Virus record (IMG/VR): IMGVR_UViG_2565956611_000003
Location: 1 to 15,035 of that record
Origin: a virus
Lineage: Duplodnaviria; Heunggongvirae; Uroviricota; Caudoviricetes
Length of the DNA stretch: 15,035 nucleotides
Strand: one strand, 5' to 3'
The stretch's first letter is position 1. Each line of letters begins with the position of its first letter. The translations under genes were made by a program, and so were the position numbers. The notes under the pieces were generated by a model. It did no database searches, was not told the origin of the DNA, and saw only the letters and a list, made by a program, of their open reading frames with translations. Below are positions 790 to 15,035 of this stretch, in pieces.

Positions 790-1080
790 TTACCGCCGTA
801 AGTGCTCCGGCTTCCTCCACTGGTAAGTATTTTTCGCGCTCTCCCTCCGTTGTTGAGAACGGCGACGGTATGCCAGCAACTCAAGAACTCTGGTTCGTAT
901 GTTGCGCATATCCACGCCGTTAAGCTCAATACCGTCACGGCGCATTACCTCAGCCACCACACGCGCGTAATTTTCGGCTATCACGCTGTCCGGCTGTGTA
1001 GCCTGTTCGTCAGGCTGCTGACTGATTCCGGTAATGCGGCGAATTATTTTTAGTAGATCAGTTTCAGTCATTCTCGTCAT
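790..1080 (-). CDS. Hypothetical small protein (96 aa) immediately downstream of terL
   Basis: ATG at 1080-1078 overlaps the terL stop (ATGA). The first ~75 residues look protein-like; the C-terminal ~20 residues are Arg-rich with rare codons (CGG, AGG), so the true 3' end is uncertain. Confidence 0.4.
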   Translation of the reverse strand: MTRMTETDLLKIIRRITGISQQPDEQATQPDSVIAENYARVVAEVMRRDGIELNGVDMRNIRTRVLELLAYRRRSQQRRESAKNTYQWRKPEHLRR

Positions 1081-2738
1081 ACCCCATCAAATGCCGCAAG
1101 TCGCTCTTTCTGGCTGTCGCTCATATCAAATGCAAATTCCTCATGCTCAGCCTGGAATGTGCCAAACGCCATCAGCGCCGCAACGCTCGGGTCTATCTTA
1201 TTGGATGATTTTTTCTTGTTCGGCTTGATATTGGCGTTCGCGTCACTCTGCATCACAACATTACTCATTGACCAGGCCAGCACCGGATCACCACGATGAA
1301 CAATCACCTTCCGGTTAACAAAAACTTCGAACGATTTCGCCGCCGGACTAAAACGAAGGTACGTTTGCGGGAACGGCTCCACCTCAAATCCCGCTCCCTG
1401 TAGCTGCGTCCTCAGGTGCGTGGCGTTCCATGTATCGAAACCCACCAGCCTGATATTGAAATTCTCTGCATCCGCCATGATGTCATCACGGATACGGTCA
1501 TAATCAATGCAGTCACCCGGTGTTGTGCGTATCCAGCCCGCCTTTGCCCACTGGCGATAGATGGCGCGGTTTTTATTGGCAGGGTTCTGTAGCTGAAATT
1601 CCGGTAGATAGTGACGTGAAACCAGCATAATCTTTTTACCGACCGGAAAGGCATAGCACACGCTGGAAATATCGCTGGTTGATGATAAGTCCAGCCCCGC
1701 ATAGCACTCCTGCCCGTATAAATCCGCCTCAGCGAACGTTCCGGCGCACTCCGCCCATGCACCGTTACCCATCCACGGCGTAGCCCCCTGACACCAGATA
1801 TTGAATCGCTTGGTGAGCATTTCCACCCACTGCGACGGAATACCCCGCGCTTTCTGGATGGTTGAGGCCAGTTTTTCACGATCGACGGAAACATCGATAT
1901 TGGGATTCGCCTTTATCCACATCGCCGGATCGTCAACCTCGCTTTCATCATCCAGCTCGTAAATCAGTACGAACATGGATTCGTTCACCTCTTCACCATC
2001 CAGTATCTGGCAGCAATAGTCGTAGTGTTGTTTACAGGCTGAAACAACGTTGCTCCCCGATGTGGTGATGGCAAATAACAGCCCCTCCGGACGCGCCCCC
2101 ATCCCCAGTTCAAGTGCGGAATAAACCCCGTTGTCTGGGTGCAGGTGATATTCATCCACAATGGCAAGACTCGGGTTTGTCCCCTCAATGGTTGCCGCTT
2201 TTGCTGCCAGTGGCTTTAACAGGCTGTTGGTTTTCGGGTGTATCACCTTGTGCGCCTGAATATTTACCCGCTTTCGTAACGGTCGGGATAAAAGGCACAT
2301 CTGACGCGCATCATCAAACACGATCCGCGCCTGATCACGACTCACGGCGGCGGTGTAAATATCCTGCTGCCCGTTTTCCATAACCAGAAACCAGTTAGCC
2401 AGGATAGCGGCGACCGTGGATTTGGCATTTTTTCGCGGTACTTCAATGAATGCGCTGGTGTATTTGCGCCGTCCGGTGGCCTTAACCTTAAATCCCAGGA
2501 TGCAGGCAAAGGCGAACTGCTGCCACGGCTCAAGTTCAATGGGGCTACCGCGCATTGCGCCTTTTACGTGCGGGCACACCCGGGAAAAGGCAATAAACCG
2601 CTCCACGACCTCCGGATCGAACGTGTAAAGGGAGTTTTCAAGGTCAGAAAAATACCGTTTAACAGCCTGTTTCAGTCGTTTACAGGCCGTAATTTTGCCG
2701 TTTTTTACGCCTTCTGCGTACTCATGCCAGGCGGTCAA
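1077..2738 (-). CDS. terL: Terminase large subunit (Terminase_1 / HK97-like family)
   Basis: 553-aa ORF with a Walker-A-like motif (VPRKNAKST) near the N-terminus and typical TerL size. Start is TTG at 2738 preceded by a strong SD (AGAGGAAGAGGA) and overlaps the terS 3' end by 17 nt. Sits directly after TerS and HNH. Confidence 0.9.
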   Translation of the reverse strand: MTAWHEYAEGVKNGKITACKRLKQAVKRYFSDLENSLYTFDPEVVERFIAFSRVCPHVKGAMRGSPIELEPWQQFAFACILGFKVKATGRRKYTSAFIEVPRKNAKSTVAAILANWFLVMENGQQDIYTAAVSRDQARIVFDDARQMCLLSRPLRKRVNIQAHKVIHPKTNSLLKPLAAKAATIEGTNPSLAIVDEYHLHPDNGVYSALELGMGARPEGLLFAITTSGSNVVSACKQHYDYCCQILDGEEVNESMFVLIYELDDESEVDDPAMWIKANPNIDVSVDREKLASTIQKARGIPSQWVEMLTKRFNIWCQGATPWMGNGAWAECAGTFAEADLYGQECYAGLDLSSTSDISSVCYAFPVGKKIMLVSRHYLPEFQLQNPANKNRAIYRQWAKAGWIRTTPGDCIDYDRIRDDIMADAENFNIRLVGFDTWNATHLRTQLQGAGFEVEPFPQTYLRFSPAAKSFEVFVNRKVIVHRGDPVLAWSMSNVVMQSDANANIKPNKKKSSNKIDPSVAALMAFGTFQAEHEEFAFDMSDSQKERLAAFDGV

Positions 2739-3078
2739 GTTCGTCCTCTTCCTCTGTTTCCGGTGGATTTCTGCGACGGCTTACCGGGTCAAAACCCAGC
2801 AAAGAAGCCATTTTGATCATTATTCTTTCTGCGTCAGCCTTTGCGCTCAGTGCGGGGTTTCTGCTCTCGCTGCCCTGACTGTTAACAATGCTGAACCCGC
2901 GCGTCGCAAGGTCTTCGACGGCTTTGCGGTATATAGAGTAGTTAACGCAATACAGTTCCAGATTGCTCCAGTCGGCGGGGGTAAGGTCTTCCCGCCCGGA
3001 AAGCTGGCGTGATTTTTCCTTCCACTGCCTGACCGCGATTTCATCCAGGTAAGCGGGGGCTTTTGGTGGTCTTGCCAT
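2722..3078 (-). CDS. terS: Terminase small subunit, P27 family
   Basis: Translation from the internal ATG at 3078 (MARPPKAPAYLDEIAVRQW...LELYCVNYSIYRKAVEDL...RNPALSA...GFDPVSRRR) fits the P27-type small terminase pattern. The ORF-track N-terminal extension to 3219 has non-protein-like composition and would cover the putative cos region. Confidence 0.8.
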   Translation of the reverse strand: MARPPKAPAYLDEIAVRQWKEKSRQLSGREDLTPADWSNLELYCVNYSIYRKAVEDLATRGFSIVNSQGSESRNPALSAKADAERIMIKMASLLGFDPVSRRRNPPETEEEDELDRLA

Positions 3079-3129
3079 GTTCTTTTTTCGCCCAATTATT
3101 TTCAAAAAAATTACCGTGCACAAAAATTT

Positions 3130-3189
3130 GAGGGGGCGGTCGGTGTCCGGCAGGGACGGTTTCGTCCTGAAAACCACCCCCACCCCCTC
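3130..3189. other. Candidate cos / packaging recognition region between HNH and terS
   Basis: 288-bp non-coding gap (3079-3366). GAGGGGG (3130-3136) and CCCCCTC (3183-3189) flank a GGACG-GTTT-CGTCC hairpin (3154-3167), with C5 tracts at 3176-3187. HNH-cos-terS-terL is the usual layout of HK97-like cos phages. Confidence 0.35.
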
Positions 3190-3366
3190 TGACGGCCTCA
3201 CCAGCGATTGCGAAAACATTCCATGACCTCGCGGTCACGGTCGGTTAATCGCTTCGCTGTGGTGCGTTTTGTGCGCCCTGTCCTGTTGGCTTTGTGCTCT
3301 GTCTCCTGTGTCTTCCATGTGTCACGCTGCCTTATCAGTCCACGTATCAGCCTGGTTTGCTCCTGT

Positions 3367-3807
3367 TCAGTCATCATCGCCATACATCCAGTTGTTACGG
3401 TGTGCCGCCCGTTCTTCCTGCTCGCGATACATGCCCGCTTTACGGTTTGCTTTCGTGGCTGGATCTTCTCGTGTCGTCTTACGGTTGTGGCACGTCTGGC
3501 ACAATGCCTGGTGATTCCACTCAGGCCAGAAGAGAACATCACCGCCGCCATTGATGGGAATGATGTGATCCACCACAAGAGCTGGCGTATAAATCCCCTT
3601 AGCCAGACAACGCACGCATAACGGGTTTTTGCTCAGGTACAGGGCGCGGTATTTGTCCCACTGTCGGGAATACCCGCGCGCGCGGCGGTGTCCCCGTCTG
3701 GCATCCTCTGCACGCCATGCAGCCCGCCTGTGCTCTTCACACTTGCCGGACTTCACGCGCTTATTACAGCCAGGCTCAGTGCATCGCCTTAATGGTTGCC
3801 ACGGCAT
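3367..3807 (-). CDS. HNH endonuclease (terminase-associated, phage packaging type)
   Basis: 146-aa ORF with CxxC...DHIIPINGGG...N...CQTCHNRKT, a classic HNH zinc-finger nuclease motif. ATG at 3807 overlaps the connector stop by 1 nt. Located immediately upstream of terS. Confidence 0.85.
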   Translation of the reverse strand: MPWQPLRRCTEPGCNKRVKSGKCEEHRRAAWRAEDARRGHRRARGYSRQWDKYRALYLSKNPLCVRCLAKGIYTPALVVDHIIPINGGGDVLFWPEWNHQALCQTCHNRKTTREDPATKANRKAGMYREQEERAAHRNNWMYGDDD

Positions 3808-4109
3808 CAGTACACCCCTACGTCACGATAAACTGACCAGAGCGCAGAAATAGCCATAGGCAGTTCCGAGTGCTCCACTGGTGAAACCGCTTCCCGGTTC
3901 TCGTACAGGAAAGCGATGTACATCAGGCAACCAACACGCATTGCCGGGGTAAATTCCAGCCCGTCTTCAAAACGTTTCCCGATATGCTTCTGGCAGGCTT
4001 CCAGCGCCGCATCGGTATACATTTTCAGAAGTTCGCCTTCACCGGATAAATCATCATCAAGTCGAAGATGTGCCCTGACTTCATCAGGTGTAATTCTGGC
4101 TTCACTCAT
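3807..4109 (-). CDS. Head-tail connector / adaptor protein, gp6-like
   Basis: 101 aa from ATG 4109 (MSEARITPDEVRAHLRLDDD...LLKMYTDAALEACQKHIGKRF...), matching the gp6-like head-tail connector pattern. SD GGGAGA lies in the portal 3' end; 8-nt overlap with the portal stop. The ORF-track GTG start at 4196 would sit deep inside the portal gene. Confidence 0.75.
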   Translation of the reverse strand: MSEARITPDEVRAHLRLDDDLSGEGELLKMYTDAALEACQKHIGKRFEDGLEFTPAMRVGCLMYIAFLYENREAVSPVEHSELPMAISALWSVYRDVGVY

Positions 4110-5316
4110 CTTTTCTCCCTTTAATTTCCACAGTCTGTTTCCATGCCTGGCTGAACTCATCACCACCTTCACGCGGCGGCATACCCTCACGCTCACGGGC
4201 TTCGTTCGGATTCATGATCCCGTTCTTAATCCCTTTCTCATACGTGGCATAACGTTCGGTGGGTGTGGCGCGTAATAAATCGGCTGAATCAAACTCAACC
4301 AGATAACGGGTACCAGGTACGGGAGAAGCCACCAGCAAAGCGGCCTTGATTTGCTGTTCGAAGTTCGCCAGCCACGGGCGCATTGTCATGGTCAGAAACG
4401 CGCGGCTTGCCTCGCTGAAATTGCTGTAGGTGCTGTTGCTGTATTCCTGCAGAAAAATAGGCGATACGTTGAACATGCGGGCGATGTCTTCAATGGAGAA
4501 GCGACGGGAGGCCAGCCATTCCGCATCCTGGTTACTCATTCCCAGTTGCCTGTAATCCATGCCCCCTTCAAGGATTGGCGTTTTTCCGGCATTTTTCGCC
4601 CCCTTGTAGCGTTCCAGAGCATCCAATGCCTGTTTACCTTTCACGCCGTCCAGCCATTCGCCTGACGTGATAATCCCTGCCGCCATCATGCCATCTTTCA
4701 TAATGCTGGCTCCGTGACGCTGTTGAGCAAGGCCAAGCCCCAGCGCCTCACGGCAAATCGTGACGGGGGAACGCCCCAGAAAGCCATCATCCGAGGCATA
4801 GCGGAGATGCAAAACTTCTTCCTGTAAATACGTGCGCACCGTTCCTGTACAGGGTTCGGTGATGGTATAGCGGTATTTGTGTGCGCCTGTGCGTTCCGGT
4901 ACAACACACCCCGGCGCATAAGGATGAAGTGATTTTGGCTGCCCGTCCTGCCCCCACTCAATAACCGCATAGGCGTTACCGTTCAGCAGGCAGTGACGCA
5001 TCATTGTGCGTTTAAACTGGTAAGGTGTCTGGCACGAATTAGGCTGCTCATTCAGCAGAATATCTACTGGGTGACTGTCCAGCCATTCCCGCGCCTCCCT
5101 GCCCTTGTCATTACGTACCAGATACAGATAACACGGCATCGTGGCCACCGCCTCAGCGATGACAGAAACCGCATTCATCACTGCAGGCAATGATTCAGCC
5201 GTCCCGGCAGAAACATATTCTCCGGATCCGGTATTCGGTACGCCGGACAGCGCCAGAAAATCATCAATGGACAGGTTACGCTGCTCGCTTTTTTTACGAC
5301 TAAAAGGCCACCACAT
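4102..5316 (-). CDS. Portal protein, HK97 family
   Basis: 405 aa from ATG 5316 (MWWPFSRKKSEQRNLSIDDFLAL...), 1 nt after the protease stop. Size and position between protease and connector fit a portal. The ORF-track TTG start at 5406 would overlap the protease gene by about 90 nt. Confidence 0.85.
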   Translation of the reverse strand: MWWPFSRKKSEQRNLSIDDFLALSGVPNTGSGEYVSAGTAESLPAVMNAVSVIAEAVATMPCYLYLVRNDKGREAREWLDSHPVDILLNEQPNSCQTPYQFKRTMMRHCLLNGNAYAVIEWGQDGQPKSLHPYAPGCVVPERTGAHKYRYTITEPCTGTVRTYLQEEVLHLRYASDDGFLGRSPVTICREALGLGLAQQRHGASIMKDGMMAAGIITSGEWLDGVKGKQALDALERYKGAKNAGKTPILEGGMDYRQLGMSNQDAEWLASRRFSIEDIARMFNVSPIFLQEYSNSTYSNFSEASRAFLTMTMRPWLANFEQQIKAALLVASPVPGTRYLVEFDSADLLRATPTERYATYEKGIKNGIMNPNEAREREGMPPREGGDEFSQAWKQTVEIKGRKDE

Positions 5317-5317
5317 A

Positions 5318-5878
5318 TCACAACCCCGCCAGCTCAGACCAGCGATGACGATTATTTCCTGTCGGACGTAATTCAGGGTGCTGTGCAAACAACGAACGGT
5401 GGGCAATCTCCACGCCAGATTCTGGATAAGCAGGCATCGACGTTATTGTGATTTCACGGAGTTCAGCGGCGGTTACGGTACGCAGATACGGTTTTTGCGC
5501 GATACTCCACTCCTCGCATAATGCGCGAAAACCAAAGCTCATTCCTGTAATGTCGCCACGCTCCACCAGCGTAAGCACATCTTTTCCAAGCTGGGTATCC
5601 GGCGGTGTCAGTTCAAAACGTAACCCGGTGTTATCCTCAGTCAGTACCAGAGTGCCGGATTTGGTGCGCCCCAGCAGTTGGGTATAGTCATGCTCATACA
5701 GGCAGCGCACATCATTACCCGTCGCCAGATAGTCAGCAAAAGCCCCCGGCGTGAACTGTTCGCGGAATTCGTCCCAGATAATTTCTGAAAGGCTGTTCCA
5801 GCGAACGGCATACCCCACCAGCTTTTTATTGCTGGCGGTCAGTTCAGATGTGCGGATTTCAAAATCGGTGTTTTTCAT
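5318..5878 (-). CDS. Prohead maturation protease, HK97 family (S78-type)
   Basis: 186 aa with VGYAVRWN...H...ITGMSFGF motifs typical of HK97 prohead proteases. ATG at 5878 with GGAG 8 nt upstream. Confidence 0.85.
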   Translation of the reverse strand: MKNTDFEIRTSELTASNKKLVGYAVRWNSLSEIIWDEFREQFTPGAFADYLATGNDVRCLYEHDYTQLLGRTKSGTLVLTEDNTGLRFELTPPDTQLGKDVLTLVERGDITGMSFGFRALCEEWSIAQKPYLRTVTAAELREITITSMPAYPESGVEIAHRSLFAQHPELRPTGNNRHRWSELAGL

Positions 5879-5897
5879 CGGTGTACTCCATAAAGCT

Positions 5898-5920
5898 GAA
5901 AAAGGAGGCCGCAGCCTCCT
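5898..5920 (-). terminator. Intra-operon stem-loop plus U-run (attenuator-like) between capsid and protease genes
   Basis: On the minus-strand transcript, 7-bp stem AGGAGGC/GCCTCCT with 4-nt loop, followed by UUUUU, in the 54-nt gap after the capsid stop (5933) and before the protease start (5878). Confidence 0.5.
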
Positions 5921-5932
5921 CCTTACTCATGA

Positions 5933-7102
5933 CTAGCCAGCTTTCATTTCCAGAATTTTGATGGCGTTTGAATCCACCACACCACCGCCCAGATATTTAT
6001 CCGTGTGGACCTTGTAGAATCCGGGTTCAGTAATGTTGTCCGGTCGGGTGCGAATCCCTGTTACATGATCAACGATGAAATAACCACGACTGAAATCGCC
6101 AACCGCTAGCGGTGCTTTTCCTGCGCCGATGTCCGGCATGGACTCCAGGCAGTAAACAGGACGACCAAGCAACATATCCGGCGCACCTTCTTTAAGGCTG
6201 TCGCGCCAGATATAATCGCCGTTCTCATTTTTCAGCTTCTGTAGTGTCCCTGCCGTGCCCGAGTTCATCACCCAGACGGCATTTTTGCGGTATTTCGCTT
6301 TCAGCTTGTAGAGAATGTCGATCAGTTCGTCCGCTGTAATGGCGGTTCCACTTGCCGCTACTATTTTTTCAATGGTGCCAAAAGCGCGGGTTTTGTCACT
6401 GGTCGCCGCACGGGTGTAAGCCATGAAGCCTTTCGGCTTGCCGTTACCGTCGCCATTAACAAAATCATCCTCTTCGGTGCTGGCGAACGTGTCGGCAATT
6501 TCGGAGGATAACCAGCCCAGAATATCCACCTCTGAAAAATCCAGGATTTCCTGCGTGGTTTTCGGGTAGGCGTAGATCGGATTCAACTTGATGGTTACGC
6601 GTTCAATTTTCGGGGTGTTGGTTTCACTGCGTGCGCTGCCTTCTGTGCCTCGTCCTACAGTTGCGCCGCCAGTGGAAACCAGTTTCTGAAACTCATTTGA
6701 TTTTGCGGTCTTCACGGTCGCGATCACGCGCATAACACTGTCATCCTGTAGCTGGCGCATGACTTCGCGATCAAGCTCAGGAATTACGGTATATCCGCCA
6801 TCCCTGCCGCTGTCAGTGCTGGTGGACAGTGATCGCACATCTCCGGTTACGATGTAGTTACGCAATTCATCAGATGATAATTTCTGGATGCCCGTTCCTG
6901 GCTTGCTGCGTTCTTCATCAGCCACAGACTCGAGGCGGGAAATTTCTGTGTCGAGGGCATCAGCTTTTGCACGCAGTTCATCAAACTGTTTGCCTTCTTC
7001 AGCGTTCAGACTACGGTTTTCACTGTCGGCTTTTTCCAGCAGGGATCGCATCTGGTTTTTCAGGGCGTTTTTTTGCTGGCGGAGTTCGATTAATTTCTTC
7101 AT
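5933..7102 (-). CDS. Major capsid protein, HK97 family
   Basis: 389 aa with an N-terminal coiled-coil delta-like region (MKKLIELRQQKNALKNQMRSLLEKA...) and a body containing DFVNGDGNGKPKGF, typical of the HK97 fold. First gene of the head operon. Confidence 0.9.
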   Translation of the reverse strand: MKKLIELRQQKNALKNQMRSLLEKADSENRSLNAEEGKQFDELRAKADALDTEISRLESVADEERSKPGTGIQKLSSDELRNYIVTGDVRSLSTSTDSGRDGGYTVIPELDREVMRQLQDDSVMRVIATVKTAKSNEFQKLVSTGGATVGRGTEGSARSETNTPKIERVTIKLNPIYAYPKTTQEILDFSEVDILGWLSSEIADTFASTEEDDFVNGDGNGKPKGFMAYTRAATSDKTRAFGTIEKIVAASGTAITADELIDILYKLKAKYRKNAVWVMNSGTAGTLQKLKNENGDYIWRDSLKEGAPDMLLGRPVYCLESMPDIGAGKAPLAVGDFSRGYFIVDHVTGIRTRPDNITEPGFYKVHTDKYLGGGVVDSNAIKILEMKAG

Positions 7103-7388
7103 GAAGGTTTTCTCGTATTGGTTAAGATTCAGGACGTGAAACCAACACGGGGGGAGCGCCGCCCGACACTCTCGGCATCTCGCAGATCAACCCGGCATCG
7201 CGCAGGGGGTCAGGCGGCATTGTGGCGGCTCACGTCTGAGTGCCACGCTCCAACATATACATAAAAATCAGTATGTAAACACCTGTCAGTCAGACCGAAC
7301 AACCACGAAAGAACACGAACAAATAATTTACAAAAGAAGTAAACCATGGCCTATTATTGCTGTCTCTGACTACAACAAAGGACGCATC

Positions 7389-7895
7389 ATGAATTTAAGC
7401 GCAATGGTATATCCTGATACTTTCATAATTAATGGCGAATCATTCAGAGGTAAAAGAAACGCAAAAGAAAACAAGGTATTAATTCCATATACAAATGAAC
7501 CGGAAGTAACTATTGGTCAACACATTATCCAGCGTGTCGGTAAAAACGAGATAAATCTAAAAATTATAGATATGAAGTTGCTTCCCAATGGAACCCGCAG
7601 ACAGGGAACCAATCATCCAAATATGTTGACTCTCTATATTGAAAATATCACGGGAAATGAACATATGACGCCAACTAAAAGTAATACATTTAACATTGGT
7701 TCAATTAGTGGTGATCAAGTGCAGATAGGTGAGCATAACCATATGCTGGTAAACATCAGCATCACTGAACTGGTTGAAAAAGTCGCTAAATCGGGGGATG
7801 TACAAGCCAAATCAGTATTAAAGCAGTTACTGGAAAACAGTACCGTTGCCAGCATTGTTGGGGCTGGCGCAAGTGCCCTAATAGGCTTACTGTAA
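7389..7895 (+). CDS. Hypothetical protein (168 aa), AT-rich cargo gene with hydrophobic C-terminal segment
   Basis: ATG 7389 with AAGGA 7 nt upstream. Visibly AT-rich compared with flanking genes. The C-terminus (STVASIVGAGASALIGLL) is hydrophobic and Gly/Ala-rich. Stand-alone plus-strand gene followed by a strong terminator. No family recognised. Confidence 0.6.
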   Translation: MNLSAMVYPDTFIINGESFRGKRNAKENKVLIPYTNEPEVTIGQHIIQRVGKNEINLKIIDMKLLPNGTRRQGTNHPNMLTLYIENITGNEHMTPTKSNTFNIGSISGDQVQIGEHNHMLVNISITELVEKVAKSGDVQAKSVLKQLLENSTVASIVGAGASALIGLL

Positions 7896-7932
7896 AAAAA
7901 TGGCCTGGATTTTACCAGGCCTTTATTATTTT
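7896..7932. terminator. Bidirectional rho-independent terminator
   Basis: GGCCTGG (7902-7908), loop ATTTTA, CCAGGCC (7915-7921), flanked by A8 upstream and TTTATTATTTT downstream, so U-runs on both strands. Sits between the convergent 168-aa gene and the minus-strand replication-module operon. Confidence 0.7.
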
Positions 7933-9150: not shown

Positions 9151-10968
9151 TTAATTTTTGCTATCGTCATTAGTGACCGATACACATGATGGCATCCAGT
9201 CTTCTGATTCCTCCGTCAGTGTCACGTTTGAACGAAAACCGTGCTTCGTTTTCCGTTTCATATACTCCCTGCCATATTCCGCCATTGCCCCCGGCATATC
9301 TTTACCGAAGCGCGTCAGTGTTACAGGTTTACCAAACCCATGTGCCCTCATATAAGCCAGATAGGCATGATAGAGATACCTGCGTGGGCTGAATGGCACA
9401 ATTTCAGCATTACCCACTAACAGGCCATCACACATTACCGACGCCATGAGATAGCCGCAGAAGTCCACCAGCGAATCCCCCTCTCGCTTTATCGCCAGTG
9501 CTTCTTCAGATTTCTGCTGCTCATATAACAGGCGTCTGGCTTCGTCCTGGTCAGCAAACCGTGTAAGCAGATGGCGAATCACTACCGCCAGCTCACCTTC
9601 TATTTTTTCCGCCAGCATTGGATCGCGTTCGTTCTCCGGTACAACTTCCGAAAAATTGAATATCACCCGACGACGTGAGATCCCCCCGCTGCGGTCACTG
9701 AATGACATGGCGTTATTGTTAACCGCCAGCACTACTGCCGGAATACGCGTTGAGTAGGGGGCTTTGTGTTTCGGGTCAATTGCCACCTTGTCACCGCCTG
9801 TAATAGCCTTAATCCCTGCCCCATCACCAGCGTAGCGGGTCATATCCGGCATGATAATCAGCGAAAAGCCAACCACTAACGCGCGTTCCCTTGCATCTTC
9901 CAGCGCCTTCATGCTTGCCGATACTGTGTTGGCCTTACCCGCCAGCATGGTGCAAATCTCCGCCATCACGCTTTTACCACTTCCCCCTGGACCTGTTACC
10001 TCAATGAATAACTGCCAGTCGTACCGGTTCGCCAGCACCATGAATAATGCAGCCAGTACGCGATCCGCCTTGCGGTCATTCTCAGCCACCGAACGGCGTA
10101 ACCACTTCCAGAAATTCGGCGCATGTGTTGCCAGCGTTTCCCCCTCTGCTGGTGGGCTGAAAGGTAATTCACTGGCAATTAACAACCAGTCGTTTTTGTT
10201 ATGCTCCCGAAAATTACCTGTTCTGGTATCAAATACCCCGTTACTGAATCCAATCAGGTTACGGGCTGTATTCCCCATTACAGGCAAACTTAACTTCATG
10301 GTATCGACCGCCGATTTAATGGCGTTCTGCGAATAGCTGATCTCCGCATCAATGAAAATCTGTGCCATAGCTCGCTGTAATTCTTTATCCTGTACTGGCT
10401 CCCATACAACGCCGTTGTAATGGTGAACAGTGTCAGAGTCAGCATGAATCGCCAGTTCACCGCCATAATGTGCCAGGAGAACTTCGCCGCGTTGACTTGC
10501 TCCCATCTGGTTAAGCGCCAGTGATGAAGCGTTATCGTCTTTTACCCGCTCTTTTTTCTTTACAGGCAGTTCAACTACCTTTTTCTTTTCCGCCTGCTCT
10601 GCCCGTTCACGTTCCAGATATTCGCGCCAGTTCTCCCGTTTCTGGCTGTGCATTCCTTCAGGGTAATAATCAGCATCCCTGACACCTGCCACTGCCAGTT
10701 TCTGCCCGATGGTATTAACAAGCCCCGGACGCAATAACCCCGCCTGATAGAGACGCACGCGATAGCGTCCGTCCGATACGATTTGCAGGTTGTCCAGTTC
10801 GGCAAGTTGTTGCTCTCCAAGCCAGACAGGTGGCACGTTATCGCCAGCCAGTCGCCCGTCCTGTTCCTGCCACTGTTTCGCATGTGCCCACGCATCACTA
10901 CCCGCAAAAATGATGACTTCCGTCATTTTGTCACGCGGCTGGTGTTTTAAATTTGGCGCTTTTTTCAT
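9151..10968 (-). CDS. Replication initiator, primase/helicase type (P4 alpha-like / D5-like SF3 helicase with Walker A)
   Basis: About 605 aa from ATG 10968 (SD GGAGAGAG upstream; ATGA overlap with the preceding ORF). Walker A motif TGPGGSGKS mid-protein; large multi-domain protein next to the iterons. The ORF-track start at 10983 is GTG. Confidence 0.8.
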   Translation of the reverse strand: MKKAPNLKHQPRDKMTEVIIFAGSDAWAHAKQWQEQDGRLAGDNVPPVWLGEQQLAELDNLQIVSDGRYRVRLYQAGLLRPGLVNTIGQKLAVAGVRDADYYPEGMHSQKRENWREYLERERAEQAEKKKVVELPVKKKERVKDDNASSLALNQMGASQRGEVLLAHYGGELAIHADSDTVHHYNGVVWEPVQDKELQRAMAQIFIDAEISYSQNAIKSAVDTMKLSLPVMGNTARNLIGFSNGVFDTRTGNFREHNKNDWLLIASELPFSPPAEGETLATHAPNFWKWLRRSVAENDRKADRVLAALFMVLANRYDWQLFIEVTGPGGSGKSVMAEICTMLAGKANTVSASMKALEDARERALVVGFSLIIMPDMTRYAGDGAGIKAITGGDKVAIDPKHKAPYSTRIPAVVLAVNNNAMSFSDRSGGISRRRVIFNFSEVVPENERDPMLAEKIEGELAVVIRHLLTRFADQDEARRLLYEQQKSEEALAIKREGDSLVDFCGYLMASVMCDGLLVGNAEIVPFSPRRYLYHAYLAYMRAHGFGKPVTLTRFGKDMPGAMAEYGREYMKRKTKHGFRSNVTLTEESEDWMPSCVSVTNDDSKN

Positions 10969-11264
10969 TTCTGCTCTCTCCACGCGGCAATCATGTTTTT
11001 TAGTTCCTGTAGTTTTTTATCAACATCCATACATGACACATGGTTATTTCTGGAAAGCGGGATTTCCCGACTGAATCTGCTAATAAAGATCTCCACGTTC
11101 AGCGAACTAAGAAATGAATAGCCATCACGGATAAAATACACACGGTCAAACATCAGTTCTTTTACCGTTACTCTGTTACCGTTCTTATCCAGATAAATAG
11201 CGCCGGGGATAATTTGGGGGTGTGCATAACCGCTGGCAGTCAAGCCAGATAAATACGTTCTCAT
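10965..11264 (-). CDS. Hypothetical protein (99 aa)
   Basis: ATG at 11264; stop overlaps the primase start (ATGA). Moderately AT-rich. No family recognised. Confidence 0.5.
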   Translation of the reverse strand: MRTYLSGLTASGYAHPQIIPGAIYLDKNGNRVTVKELMFDRVYFIRDGYSFLSSLNVEIFISRFSREIPLSRNNHVSCMDVDKKLQELKNMIAAWREQK

Positions 11265-12635: not shown

Positions 12636-12860
12636 TTACGCTGCCTTACCTGAATTAACGCGGTCACGGCTTTGCACCCAGTCCATAACTTCGGAAAGCA
12701 ACCAGCCTACAGAACGCCCCCCAAGATTACGGCGAGACGGAAAGCCCCCTTTCTTCTCCAGTTCGTAGCGTGTAGTACGGCTGACGCCTGTTAACTTACG
12801 ACATTCATCCTCACGAATTACGCGATCTGTTAGTGATTGAAATTGTGTATTTTGATTCAT
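12636..12860 (-). CDS. alpA: AlpA-family prophage transcriptional regulator (small HTH excisionase-like activator)
   Basis: 74 aa (MNQNTQFQSLTDRVIREDECRKLTGVSRTTRYELEKKGGFPSRRNLGGRSVGWLLSEVMDWVQ...) matches the AlpA/CP4-57 regulator pattern. ATG at 12860 with GAGGG SD. Position near the integrase is typical. Confidence 0.85.
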   Translation of the reverse strand: MNQNTQFQSLTDRVIREDECRKLTGVSRTTRYELEKKGGFPSRRNLGGRSVGWLLSEVMDWVQSRDRVNSGKAA

Positions 12861-12963: not shown

Positions 12964-13818
12964 TTAATTTTCATTAGATAACATTTTTCTTATTTTTTCT
13001 AAAGAATCGCTGCGCATTATTTTTTCTAAGAAGGGTTTTACAGTCTGAGCAATAGCAAAGGTGTCCTTTTCACCATCAGGATACAAAGATACGGCAAGCA
13101 CCCCTAATGAAATTTTTCTATCTGTAGACAACTCCCAAGATAATAAGTCAATTAATGGGATTATCTTATAATCAATAATTTTACGTCGTATGCTCTCCCA
13201 ACTTCCTGCAATTGGTTTGTCTGGCTCAACAATTGAAAGTTCACTACGCCATTTTGGTAATAGTTTTGTAAACGCTTCAATCAACTCATCATCTCTGTTA
13301 TGTAGTAAGTCAACAGAAACAAGCATATTATCTAATGTATCAGAAAGGAGATTCACTGGTTCACGCATCACAGCCCAAAACATCCCATTATCTTCTGATA
13401 TTAAACTTCCAACCATCTCATTATCTATGATGATTGGTTTATCCTTCCAATATCCTCTTTCCGCAGTCAGTTTATTAATCATTGATATATCAAACCTTGT
13501 TACAGGTTTAATTCCATCATCATAACTTAGCTCAATTAACTTCGGTTGCACTTTATGGTCATATTCTTTTTGTTTATCACAAAACCAATCGTCTTCTTTC
13601 AGCTCTCCAAATGGATCCCCGTAATTATTATGCAACGGGTATTCAGCACCAAACATAAATCCATATTCAGGCATCTCAGAATGTTTCATCGTTAAATCAT
13701 CTTGTCGCCAATATAATTGGCGAAATAGATCTTTATCCGACAAGTTTTCTAGGCAATCATATTTGCCTAAATCAAATGACTTTGGTAAATCTTTTTTACT
13801 ATTTACTTTTTTCGTCAT
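12964..13818 (-). CDS. Hypothetical protein (284 aa), AT-rich cargo gene between integrase and alpA
   Basis: ATG at 13818 overlaps the integrase stop (ATGA) with GAGGG SD. Markedly AT-rich compared with int and alpA. Acidic, soluble-looking protein; no family or catalytic motif recognised. Confidence 0.7.
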   Translation of the reverse strand: MTKKVNSKKDLPKSFDLGKYDCLENLSDKDLFRQLYWRQDDLTMKHSEMPEYGFMFGAEYPLHNNYGDPFGELKEDDWFCDKQKEYDHKVQPKLIELSYDDGIKPVTRFDISMINKLTAERGYWKDKPIIIDNEMVGSLISEDNGMFWAVMREPVNLLSDTLDNMLVSVDLLHNRDDELIEAFTKLLPKWRSELSIVEPDKPIAGSWESIRRKIIDYKIIPLIDLLSWELSTDRKISLGVLAVSLYPDGEKDTFAIAQTVKPFLEKIMRSDSLEKIRKMLSNEN

Positions 13819-15035
13819 TGTATCCCTCTCAATATCACAATATTTTCATTATATCCTGCAATCATATCAAGACGCTCAACCCATAGATTCAGTGCGTCCC
13901 GTTTCGCCTGCAAATAGCGTGAATGGTTATAGGTTTTTTGCTGACCTGGCATCTGATGCGCTGTGATGTGCTCCACGATATGCGGATCGACACCTAAATC
14001 ATTCAGCATAGTTGTAAACGTGTGTCGGAAATCATGCAGCGTCCAGTGTTCCTGCTTAAGCCGCTTATGCGCATTTCGTCCATATTGCGCCACCGTGGTA
14101 TCTTTTTTCAGTTCGCCGAGTAATAACCCAGTGTGTGCGTTTTGCTCCACCAGCTTCTGAATGAACGGCAAAATACCATCAGGAATAGGTCGGAATATTG
14201 TTACCTTCGTTTTGCTGTGCTCTTTTGGCACTGTCCACAACATTTCTTTCAGATCCCATTCTTTGATCTCTGAAAGTCTGATCTCTGCCGTTCTGCACCC
14301 GAACACAATTAACAAGCGCATTAACGCACTGTAATAGGGAGCGAACACATCACCATCAATAGCGCGTAGAATTTCTTTTAGTTCGCTGTTGCTGTGCACT
14401 CTCTCGCGGATTTCTGCTCTCTTACCCACATCAGTAACGATCAAATCGTCCAGGGCGTTGCTAAACGCGTAGCGCCGCCTGCGGCAAAACTTTAGCGCCT
14501 GTTTGCATGTCTGCATGACATGGCCCGCTGCTACTGGTGCTTTTTTTCGTACGCGGTCAAAACATGCGATCCACTGCCTTGTATCACACTTATCAAGGGG
14601 AATTGCCCCAATATGGCAAATGATGTGCTTATCCATACGCTGCACCAGCTTTATGTAATCTTTGCGGTTATCCTTCGCGTATTCCTCCAGCCAGTAGTTA
14701 ATCGCTTCCTTCACCGTAACGGGTTTTAGTGCTTCCTGTACTGTGGCGCACAACTCATAACGGGGGTTTTTACCCTCAGCCAGCCATGCCCGGCACAGTG
14801 TGCGTTTTTCCCTTGCGGCTTTCAGCGACAATTCAGGGTAAGCCCCCAGCTTTAACCGCTCTGCGGCAACCTCACGGCCTCCCGTTCGGTACCGGAAATA
14901 CCAGGTTAATTTGCCGCCCTTTGAGTGTTTAATCTCCAGCCCGCCCCCGTCGGAGTAAAAACGCTCTTTTTCTGCCTGGACAGCCGCCAATTTTTTTAAC
15001 GTCGAATCGCTCAGTTTGTTTAGTGCTTTTCCCAC
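13815..15035 (-). CDS. int: Tyrosine integrase, P4 family (5' end at or just beyond the window edge)
   Basis: 406 aa read to the window edge. C-terminal catalytic region with LHDFRHTF (HxxR) and a downstream Tyr (KTYNHSRYL). The N-terminal region (LSDSTLKKL...LGAYPELSLKAAREKR) resembles P4-type integrase arm-binding domains. The first codon in the window is GTG. Confidence 0.9.
   Translation of the reverse strand: MGKALNKLSDSTLKKLAAVQAEKERFYSDGGGLEIKHSKGGKLTWYFRYRTGGREVAAERLKLGAYPELSLKAAREKRTLCRAWLAEGKNPRYELCATVQEALKPVTVKEAINYWLEEYAKDNRKDYIKLVQRMDKHIICHIGAIPLDKCDTRQWIACFDRVRKKAPVAAGHVMQTCKQALKFCRRRRYAFSNALDDLIVTDVGKRAEIRERVHSNSELKEILRAIDGDVFAPYYSALMRLLIVFGCRTAEIRLSEIKEWDLKEMLWTVPKEHSKTKVTIFRPIPDGILPFIQKLVEQNAHTGLLLGELKKDTTVAQYGRNAHKRLKQEHWTLHDFRHTFTTMLNDLGVDPHIVEHITAHQMPGQQKTYNHSRYLQAKRDALNLWVERLDMIAGYNENIVILRGIQ

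Follow-up and report, generated by a model that had tools for sequence, protein, structure and literature searches.

A hairpin and U run conserved behind the capsid gene of a capsid-forming PICI as a predicted leaky terminator

The stretch of DNA analysed here (the window, 15,035 nucleotides) is 100% identical to a chromosomal island of Escherichia coli SMS-3-5, where RefSeq places it between thiM and rcnR, and of many other strains. Capsid-forming PICIs (cf-PICIs) are defined by head and packaging genes of their own and by the lack of tail or lysis genes (PMC10085698; bioRxiv 10.1101/2022.09.08.507074), and from its gene content we assign the window to this class as a satellite of ~15 kb. For replication and integration, the island encodes an integrase, an AlpA regulator and a primase/replicase, together with an SSB; for packaging, it encodes capsid, protease, portal, connector, HNH, TerS and TerL, all with Pfam matches (Table 1). 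Tail and holin/lysis genes are absent from the RefSeq annotation of the island in E. coli SMS-3-5. A preliminary description, made from the sequence alone, had named the capsid, protease, portal and terminase genes around the junction of interest, and the Pfam assignments agree with it throughout.

All head genes are encoded on the minus strand. The packaging operon runs capsid, protease, portal, connector, HNH, small ORF, TerS and TerL, the same order as in the prototype EcCIEDL933, and both Pfam and RefSeq confirm the earlier statement that the capsid gene comes first. By RefSeq coordinates, the junctions within the head block overlap or are at most 1 nt apart, with the exception of a 54-nt spacer between the capsid and protease genes and 119 nt before TerS; a 5-nt gap follows TerL. 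A promoter scan returned a single promoter-like site upstream of the operon on the minus strand, and found none on that strand between 7252 and 1071.

Several further features of the island deserve mention. One connector gene lies between the portal and HNH genes, where EcCIEDL933 has two, for head closure and connector (locus L084, E. coli EDL933, 6530-7161). The 119-nt noncoding gap before TerS (within 3079-3240, minus strand), the only other sizeable gap of the operon, has a hairpin just upstream (3240-3221) and is probably the cos region, judging by the HK97-type arrangement of HNH and TerS. At 7902-7921, the stem GGCCUGG-loop-CCAGGCC, bordered by a T run at either end, forms a bidirectional terminator between the minus-strand replication genes and a plus-strand gene; besides the site at 5899-5920, it is the only canonical terminator of the window. 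On the opposite strand, just before the packaging operon, a 168-aa ORF (7389-7895, plus strand) has no Pfam match; according to the cf-PICI authors, this slot should hold variable genes for immunity or accessory functions.

Table 1. Features of the island and of the capsid-protease junction, in window coordinates.
Feature	Position	Strand	Details
Phage_integrase	13815-15035		Pfam
Phage_AlpA (AlpA-family regulator, PF05930)	12636-12860		Pfam
D5_N/Pox_D5 primase	9151-10983		Pfam
Promoter-like site	7252-7279	-	TTTACA-16-TATGTT; sole one upstream of the operon on the minus strand (promoter scan)
Conserved structured leader	7106-7246	-	~145 nt between promoter-like site and capsid ATG
Leader H1	7222-7246	-	GUGGCACUCA-GACG-UGAGCCGCCAC; invariant GACG tetraloop
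Leader H2	7158-7218	-	sequence variable, always self-complementary
Leader H3	7106-7143	-	3' arm over weak capsid SD
Major capsid gene, 389 aa, HK97 fold family	5933-7102	-	PF05065 Phage_capsid, 1.9e-71; RefSeq 'phage major capsid protein'
AAGG 5' of stem	5921-5924	-	A-U and G-U pairing with U tract; A-tract-like extension (MFE fold)
Predicted terminator hairpin	5903-5920	-	AGGAGGC 5920-5914, loop UGCG 5913-5910, GCCUCCU 5909-5903
U5 tract	5899-5903	-	first U able to pair with A5920; CAGCUUU next
Protease SD GGAG	5886-5889	-	7 nt before ATG; GGAG conserved in spacer alignment
Prohead serine protease gene	5318-5878	-	PF04586 Peptidase_S78, 6e-46
Portal	4102-5316	-	Pfam and RefSeq
Head-tail connector	3807-4109	-	Pfam and RefSeq
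HNH	3367-3807	-	Pfam and RefSeq
Hypothetical small ORF	3198-3383	-	RefSeq coordinates
TerS	2722-3078	-	Pfam and RefSeq
TerL	1077-2738	-	Pfam and RefSeq

The capsid stop codon (TAG, 5935-5933, minus strand) is followed by UCAUGAGUAAGG and then by the stem of a 7-bp hairpin containing five G-C pairs (-13.3 kcal/mol on folding); the placement of a hairpin and U5 at 5898-5920 in the preliminary description is exact on the minus-strand sequence. In the minimum free energy (MFE) fold, pairing of A and G residues with the U tract lengthens the stem to 11 bp (-17.1 kcal/mol). The AGGAGGC stem starts 12 nt past the capsid stop codon (8-12 nt for the start of the hairpin), and the whole hairpin falls within the noncoding 54-nt spacer. 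Downstream of the U run come CAGCUUUAU, the protease Shine-Dalgarno (SD) sequence, 7 nt and the ATG at 5878, which lies 21 nt beyond the U tract. At five residues this tract is shorter than the canonical 7-9 nt, which predicts a terminator of moderate strength. A further helix (AAAGCUG/CAGCUUU) flanks the hairpin in the MFE fold, stacking on it without competing; it is not evident in relatives and we treated it as chance.

We compared the site with a strict terminator pattern (perfect 6-bp stem, at least five G-C pairs, 3-8 nt loop and T-rich tail). Only two loci in the whole 15-kb window match, the 5899-5920 site and the terminator at 7902-7921, against an expectation of 0.05 matches per dinucleotide-shuffled window. 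A promoter and terminator scan that allows G-T stem extension did not list 5899-5920, because the extension absorbs the U tract. Rfam gave no matches at gathering score in the window, and over 5800-7400 only chance-level snoRNA matches (E ~2). On its sequence, we regard the hairpin with its U run as a genuine motif of an intrinsic terminator, located on the sense strand and not due to chance.

To place the motif in its family, we collected relatives with a capsid profile, obtaining 80 loci from one-genome-per-species contigs (61-76% capsid identity; Enterobacterales including Xenorhabdus and Photorhabdus, Orbaceae and Pasteurellaceae) and 80 further loci from viral contigs (76-100% identity). 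The protease gene is next after the capsid gene wherever both are present, as in 77/77 analysable genome loci. A GC hairpin lies directly past the capsid stop codon in ~71 of these 77, mostly as GGGG(C)-loop-(G)CCCC, and in 86 of the 90 distinct capsid-protease spacers from genome loci and viral contigs pooled. Among the distinct spacers, the stem is followed by T at +1 (91%), +2 (88%) and +3 (86%), and less strictly at +4 and +5 (56% and 59%), compared with a spacer background of 28%. The stem starts 4-18 nt past the capsid stop and always ends 20-26 nt upstream of the protease ATG. The loop varies freely in sequence and length (TTCG, TGCG, TACG, ACAGC, TATAT, GAAAA and others), and at least ten stem variants occur, every one of them able to pair.

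Beside the family form GGGGC/GCCCC, we found the compensated stems GGGGU/ACCCC, GGGAU/AUCCC, CGGGGC/GCCCCG, GGGGCGA/UCGCCCC, GGGGCU/AGCCCC and GGGGCG/CGCCCC, and EcCIEDL933 has AAGGGGC-UUAAAA-GCCCCUU-U in the same place. At one stem position, the family has G-C, E. coli M15 has G.U (GGGGGC/GCCUCC; locus L085, 1690-1725, minus strand) and the window has A-U (GGAGGC/GCCUCC); the M15 stem is an evolutionary intermediate between the other two. In 28 near-identical contigs, changes are confined to the loop (UGCG to UUCG) and to positions downstream of the U tract, leaving the stem untouched. These comparisons rest on hairpins extracted sequence by sequence; RNAalifold on a MAFFT alignment of 63 spacers, in which the 5' arms were misaligned, returned only four uninformative pairs and was excluded from covariation. 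Free loops, compensated stems, a conserved T run and fixed placement therefore argue that selection acts on a hairpin followed by a U run, and not on a particular sequence.

The hairpin is lost in six loci (L020, L027, L034, L045, L049 and L071; spacers of 1-18 nt) and is therefore dispensable, and in many Xenorhabdus relatives the U tract is reduced to U3, so that termination may be slight at some homologous sites. Two long-gap loci were considered as exceptions and rejected, as the hairpin remains attached to the capsid gene in both. One is a Testudinibacter element (L039, 4232-5026), in which a 264-aa ORF of unknown function is inserted between the hairpin and the protease gene; the other is from Xenorhabdus kozodoii (L036, 2685-4516), where a capsid/protease duplication has left a truncated protease and a second capsid copy.

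Taken with the operon layout, the hairpin and U5 probably constitute a leaky intrinsic (Rho-independent) terminator between the capsid and protease genes, giving a molar excess of capsid mRNA. Some RNA polymerases would release a capsid-only mRNA of ~1.3-1.4 kb ending in a protective 3' hairpin, which would add to the stability of the capsid message, and the remainder would continue into the protease, portal, connector, HNH, TerS and TerL genes. Read-through is obligatory, because the 21 nt before the protease ATG are too short for a promoter and the promoter scan showed nothing farther down the strand. As no particle can be built without protease, portal, HNH and terminase, some polymerases have to pass the hairpin, and termination is at most partial. 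Such leakiness is expected from the short U tract (U5, then CAGCUUU), the 7-bp stem and the position of the hairpin 8-12 nt after the stop codon. At this distance, a ribosome finishing the capsid gene should hinder folding of the hairpin and weaken the terminator, by analogy with tR2 in E. coli, which is repressed nearly completely when only a few bp separate it from a stop codon, ranges from 0.12 to 0.8 in efficiency at 17-18 bp, and reaches ~0.9 only beyond ~30 bp (PMC4824070). An excess of capsid mRNA would fit a head with ~235-240 capsid subunits per 12 portal subunits; the EcCIEDL933 head has T=4 geometry, with 240 capsid positions and the portal in place of one penton (bioRxiv 10.1101/2025.02.11.637232).

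The preliminary description had proposed a partial terminator after a capsid-first gene that lowers expression downstream, and this reading proves largely right in kind. The sequences show the motif, the low odds of its arising by chance, its conservation in the family with compensatory changes and the obligatory nature of read-through; actual termination, its efficiency and its effect on protein ratios we infer from these. The sequence is best accounted for by a partial terminator through which the capsid share rises, but the further proposal that the hairpin sets head-protein stoichiometry has to allow for more than transcription. Capsid protein is required in the largest amount, yet its gene has only a weak SD, GAGAAAACCUUCAUG (GAGA/GGAA; window 7100-7120, minus strand), inside the conserved leader hairpin H3, whereas the protease gene has a good GGAG at optimal spacing (5876-5889); head-protein ratios therefore depend on translation too.

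Classical attenuators (trp and his leader peptides, riboswitches, T-boxes) place a hairpin and U tract upstream of the structural genes and regulate read-through there; this regulation requires an antiterminator fold that competes with the terminator, and a 5' leader able to sense ribosome stalling, a ligand or tRNA. The cf-PICI site, in contrast, is intercistronic, and folding of 5870-5945 gave the terminator hairpin and the stacking flank helix only, with no alternative antiterminator fold. The label 'attenuator' used in the preliminary description is for this reason not retained: lacking a competing fold or sensor, 5899-5920 is not a classical attenuator, and would work like a constitutive leaky terminator.

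The cf-PICI papers that we read contain no mention of a terminator or promoter, and our literature search returned no direct description of terminators in cf-PICIs or after capsid genes; work on SPP1 and Pseudomonas terminators did not bear on the question. The closest precedent is annotated in HK97 (NC_002167), the archetypal phage for such head modules. Immediately behind the major head gene gp5, its record marks 5192-5213 as 'terminator, putative', with similar annotations after the portal gene and flanking the major tail gene. The sequence after gp5 reads GGGCGGG-GAAA-CCCGCCC-UUUU, with the next ATG 5 nt on. The two systems share a head-module family (HK97-type capsid, S78 protease and portal), and the HK97 element, likewise putative, has a GC stem of 7 bp, a tetraloop and U4, and starts a few nt past the capsid stop in a polycistronic late operon. 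They differ in gene order: in HK97, capsid comes fifth, behind TerS, TerL, portal and protease, and a terminator behind it is therefore unable to lower portal or protease transcripts relative to capsid, whereas in a cf-PICI the capsid gene is first and the same device can therefore create a real transcript gradient.

Partial termination behind capsid genes is otherwise familiar. In T7, the hairpin terminator T-phi, which is of partial efficiency, comes straight after the major capsid gene (gene 10), and read-through is required for the distal late genes; unlike the site described here, it acts on T7 RNA polymerase and not on that of the host, and gene 10 is not the first of its unit. PhiX174 has leaky Rho-independent terminators (T_J, T_F, T_G and T_H) after individual capsid-related genes, yielding nested mRNAs; at T_J, T_F and T_G, no more than 20-40% of transcription is blocked (bioRxiv 10.1101/2020.03.05.979765). 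PhiX174 differs in belonging to the Microviridae, with unrelated proteins and several successive terminators, and in that termination is measured there and predicted in cf-PICIs. A cellular parallel is reported for ABC importer operons of cellulolytic Clostridia, where an intercistronic stem-loop after the gene of the most abundant subunit lowers downstream expression (PMC9045158); these are Firmicutes operons unrelated to virion assembly. A partial terminator after the capsid gene is thus an ordinary, known device.

Upstream of the capsid gene lies a second element, a structured leader whose conservation exceeds that of the proteins. From 26 diverse sequences, RNAalifold predicted 18 pairs, with double compensatory changes at 11, and H1 is never broken; the fold has z = -2.8. 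Within a phage collection, the leader is confined to cf-PICI-like records, and it has no Rfam match. EcCIEDL933 (L084, 10140-10310, minus strand) retains H1, with the same GACG loop and a covarying inner stem, as well as H2; its leader further contains GUCCUGG...CCAGGAC and U8 adjoining the capsid AUG, a terminator-like hairpin that suggests antitermination control. No such terminator-like hairpin was found in the leader of the window itself. Farther upstream, a box TTTTGTAAATTATTTGTTCG (7316-7335, minus strand) lies ~40-60 nt upstream of the -35-like hexamer and is common to the window, EcCIEDL933 and most Enterobacterales relatives, making it a candidate regulator binding site. In several relatives (L015, L016 and L017), a hairpin and T run (for example, CCCCUCUAUUUUUGAGGGG-UUUC) is present ~180-190 nt upstream of the capsid ATG, ending right at the -35 of the presumed packaging promoter, and may be a terminator of upstream transcription or part of promoter control.

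Other roles for the hairpin at 5899-5920 must be weighed against a leaky terminator. It could chiefly stabilise mRNA, in which case the operon would be transcribed as a single RNA with negligible termination, endonucleases would cut downstream and the hairpin would block 3'-to-5' exonucleases, leaving the capsid segment to outlive the distal segments by differential decay, as known from the puf, pap and malEFG operons. A stable GC hairpin at the 3' end of the most-needed cistron is consistent with this, as are the relatives that keep the stem with U2-U3 only. So too are the similar hairpins of HK97, which lie inside a late operon read by a Q-modified, terminator-resistant polymerase, and a purely 3'-stabilising function is attractive for the HK97 hairpin. 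The GCUUU just past the U tract would fit the loose preference of RNase E, but this possible site is not conserved in relatives. A U tract would be superfluous for a stabiliser. T is nevertheless strongly conserved at +1 to +3 (86-91%), with enrichment at +4 and +5, and in most cases the T run exceeds in length the A run upstream that is available for pairing; we therefore think it unlikely that stabilisation is the chief role. The two functions are compatible, as termination would likewise leave the hairpin at the 3' end of the RNA. Very improbable, by comparison, is a structural or translational spacer or a chance palindrome, whether insulating protease translation or offering AGGAGG as a stand-by or pause site. 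The preliminary description had pointed to this SD-like sequence, which is indeed present in the 5' arm, and a 23-aa ORF (5859-5930) overlaps the region. However, the AGGAGG appears incidental: relatives have GGGGC stems in its place, it lies ~40 nt before the protease ATG with no start codon following at SD distance, and a separate GGAG serves the protease gene, so we rejected it as a functional SD. The 23-aa ORF starts upstream of AGGAGG and was rejected, as it is not conserved in relatives; the compensated stem and T run argue against chance.

The leader raises a different alternative, that 5899-5920 is a conditional terminator in an operon under antitermination control. AlpA of the satellite, a helper factor or a put-like RNA would modify polymerase at the promoter-proximal leader and so let it read through, and unmodified polymerase (basal or leak transcription) would stop, making the hairpin a safety stop more than a stoichiometry device; in EcCIEDL933-type elements, unmodified polymerase would already stop at the leader terminator. 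If a modified polymerase does transcribe the operon, termination at 5899-5920 would be minor. The covarying leader just downstream of the promoter-like site (11/18 pairs doubly compensated), the H1-like hairpins in 86/142 distinct upstream regions, and the EcCIEDL933 sequence of H1 and H2 followed by a hairpin and U8 at the capsid AUG are all consistent with such control. The island also encodes an AlpA-family regulator (PF05930); AlpA is required for cf-PICI induction (bioRxiv 10.1101/2022.09.08.507074), and the AlpA of P. aeruginosa is a Q-like antiterminator that bypasses intrinsic terminators (PMC7969949, PMC9371919), so antitermination of the operon, modulating read-through at 5899-5920, is conceivable, if improbable. 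Homology between the satellite and P. aeruginosa AlpA proteins is, however, not established: a PDB search with the island AlpA gave only 8c3t, an 'AlpA family' protein (E 1.4e-7), and did not recover the P. aeruginosa AlpA chains. The leader of the window, moreover, lacks a terminator-like hairpin, matches no known antitermination RNA family and could instead be a 5' stabiliser or translational element. In the HK022 record, put sites are not annotated. We regard a conditional terminator as quite unlikely. The most far-reaching version is a speculative one that we would not favour: the leader would make polymerase terminator-resistant on induction (through AlpA, a helper factor or a put-like RNA), 5899-5920 would set a conditional ratio of capsid to machinery, and the leader would represent a new, cf-PICI-specific class of cis-regulatory RNA.

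Of the two elements, the upstream leader is the one that deserves further work. If the leaky terminator works as predicted, it would provide a one-step account of how a 15-kb satellite makes its shell protein in large excess over portal, protease and terminase, and would explain in functional terms why cf-PICIs, unusually, have the capsid gene in first place. This would leave the general view of phage gene expression unaltered, and would be of use for the annotation of cf-PICIs and the engineering of their particles.
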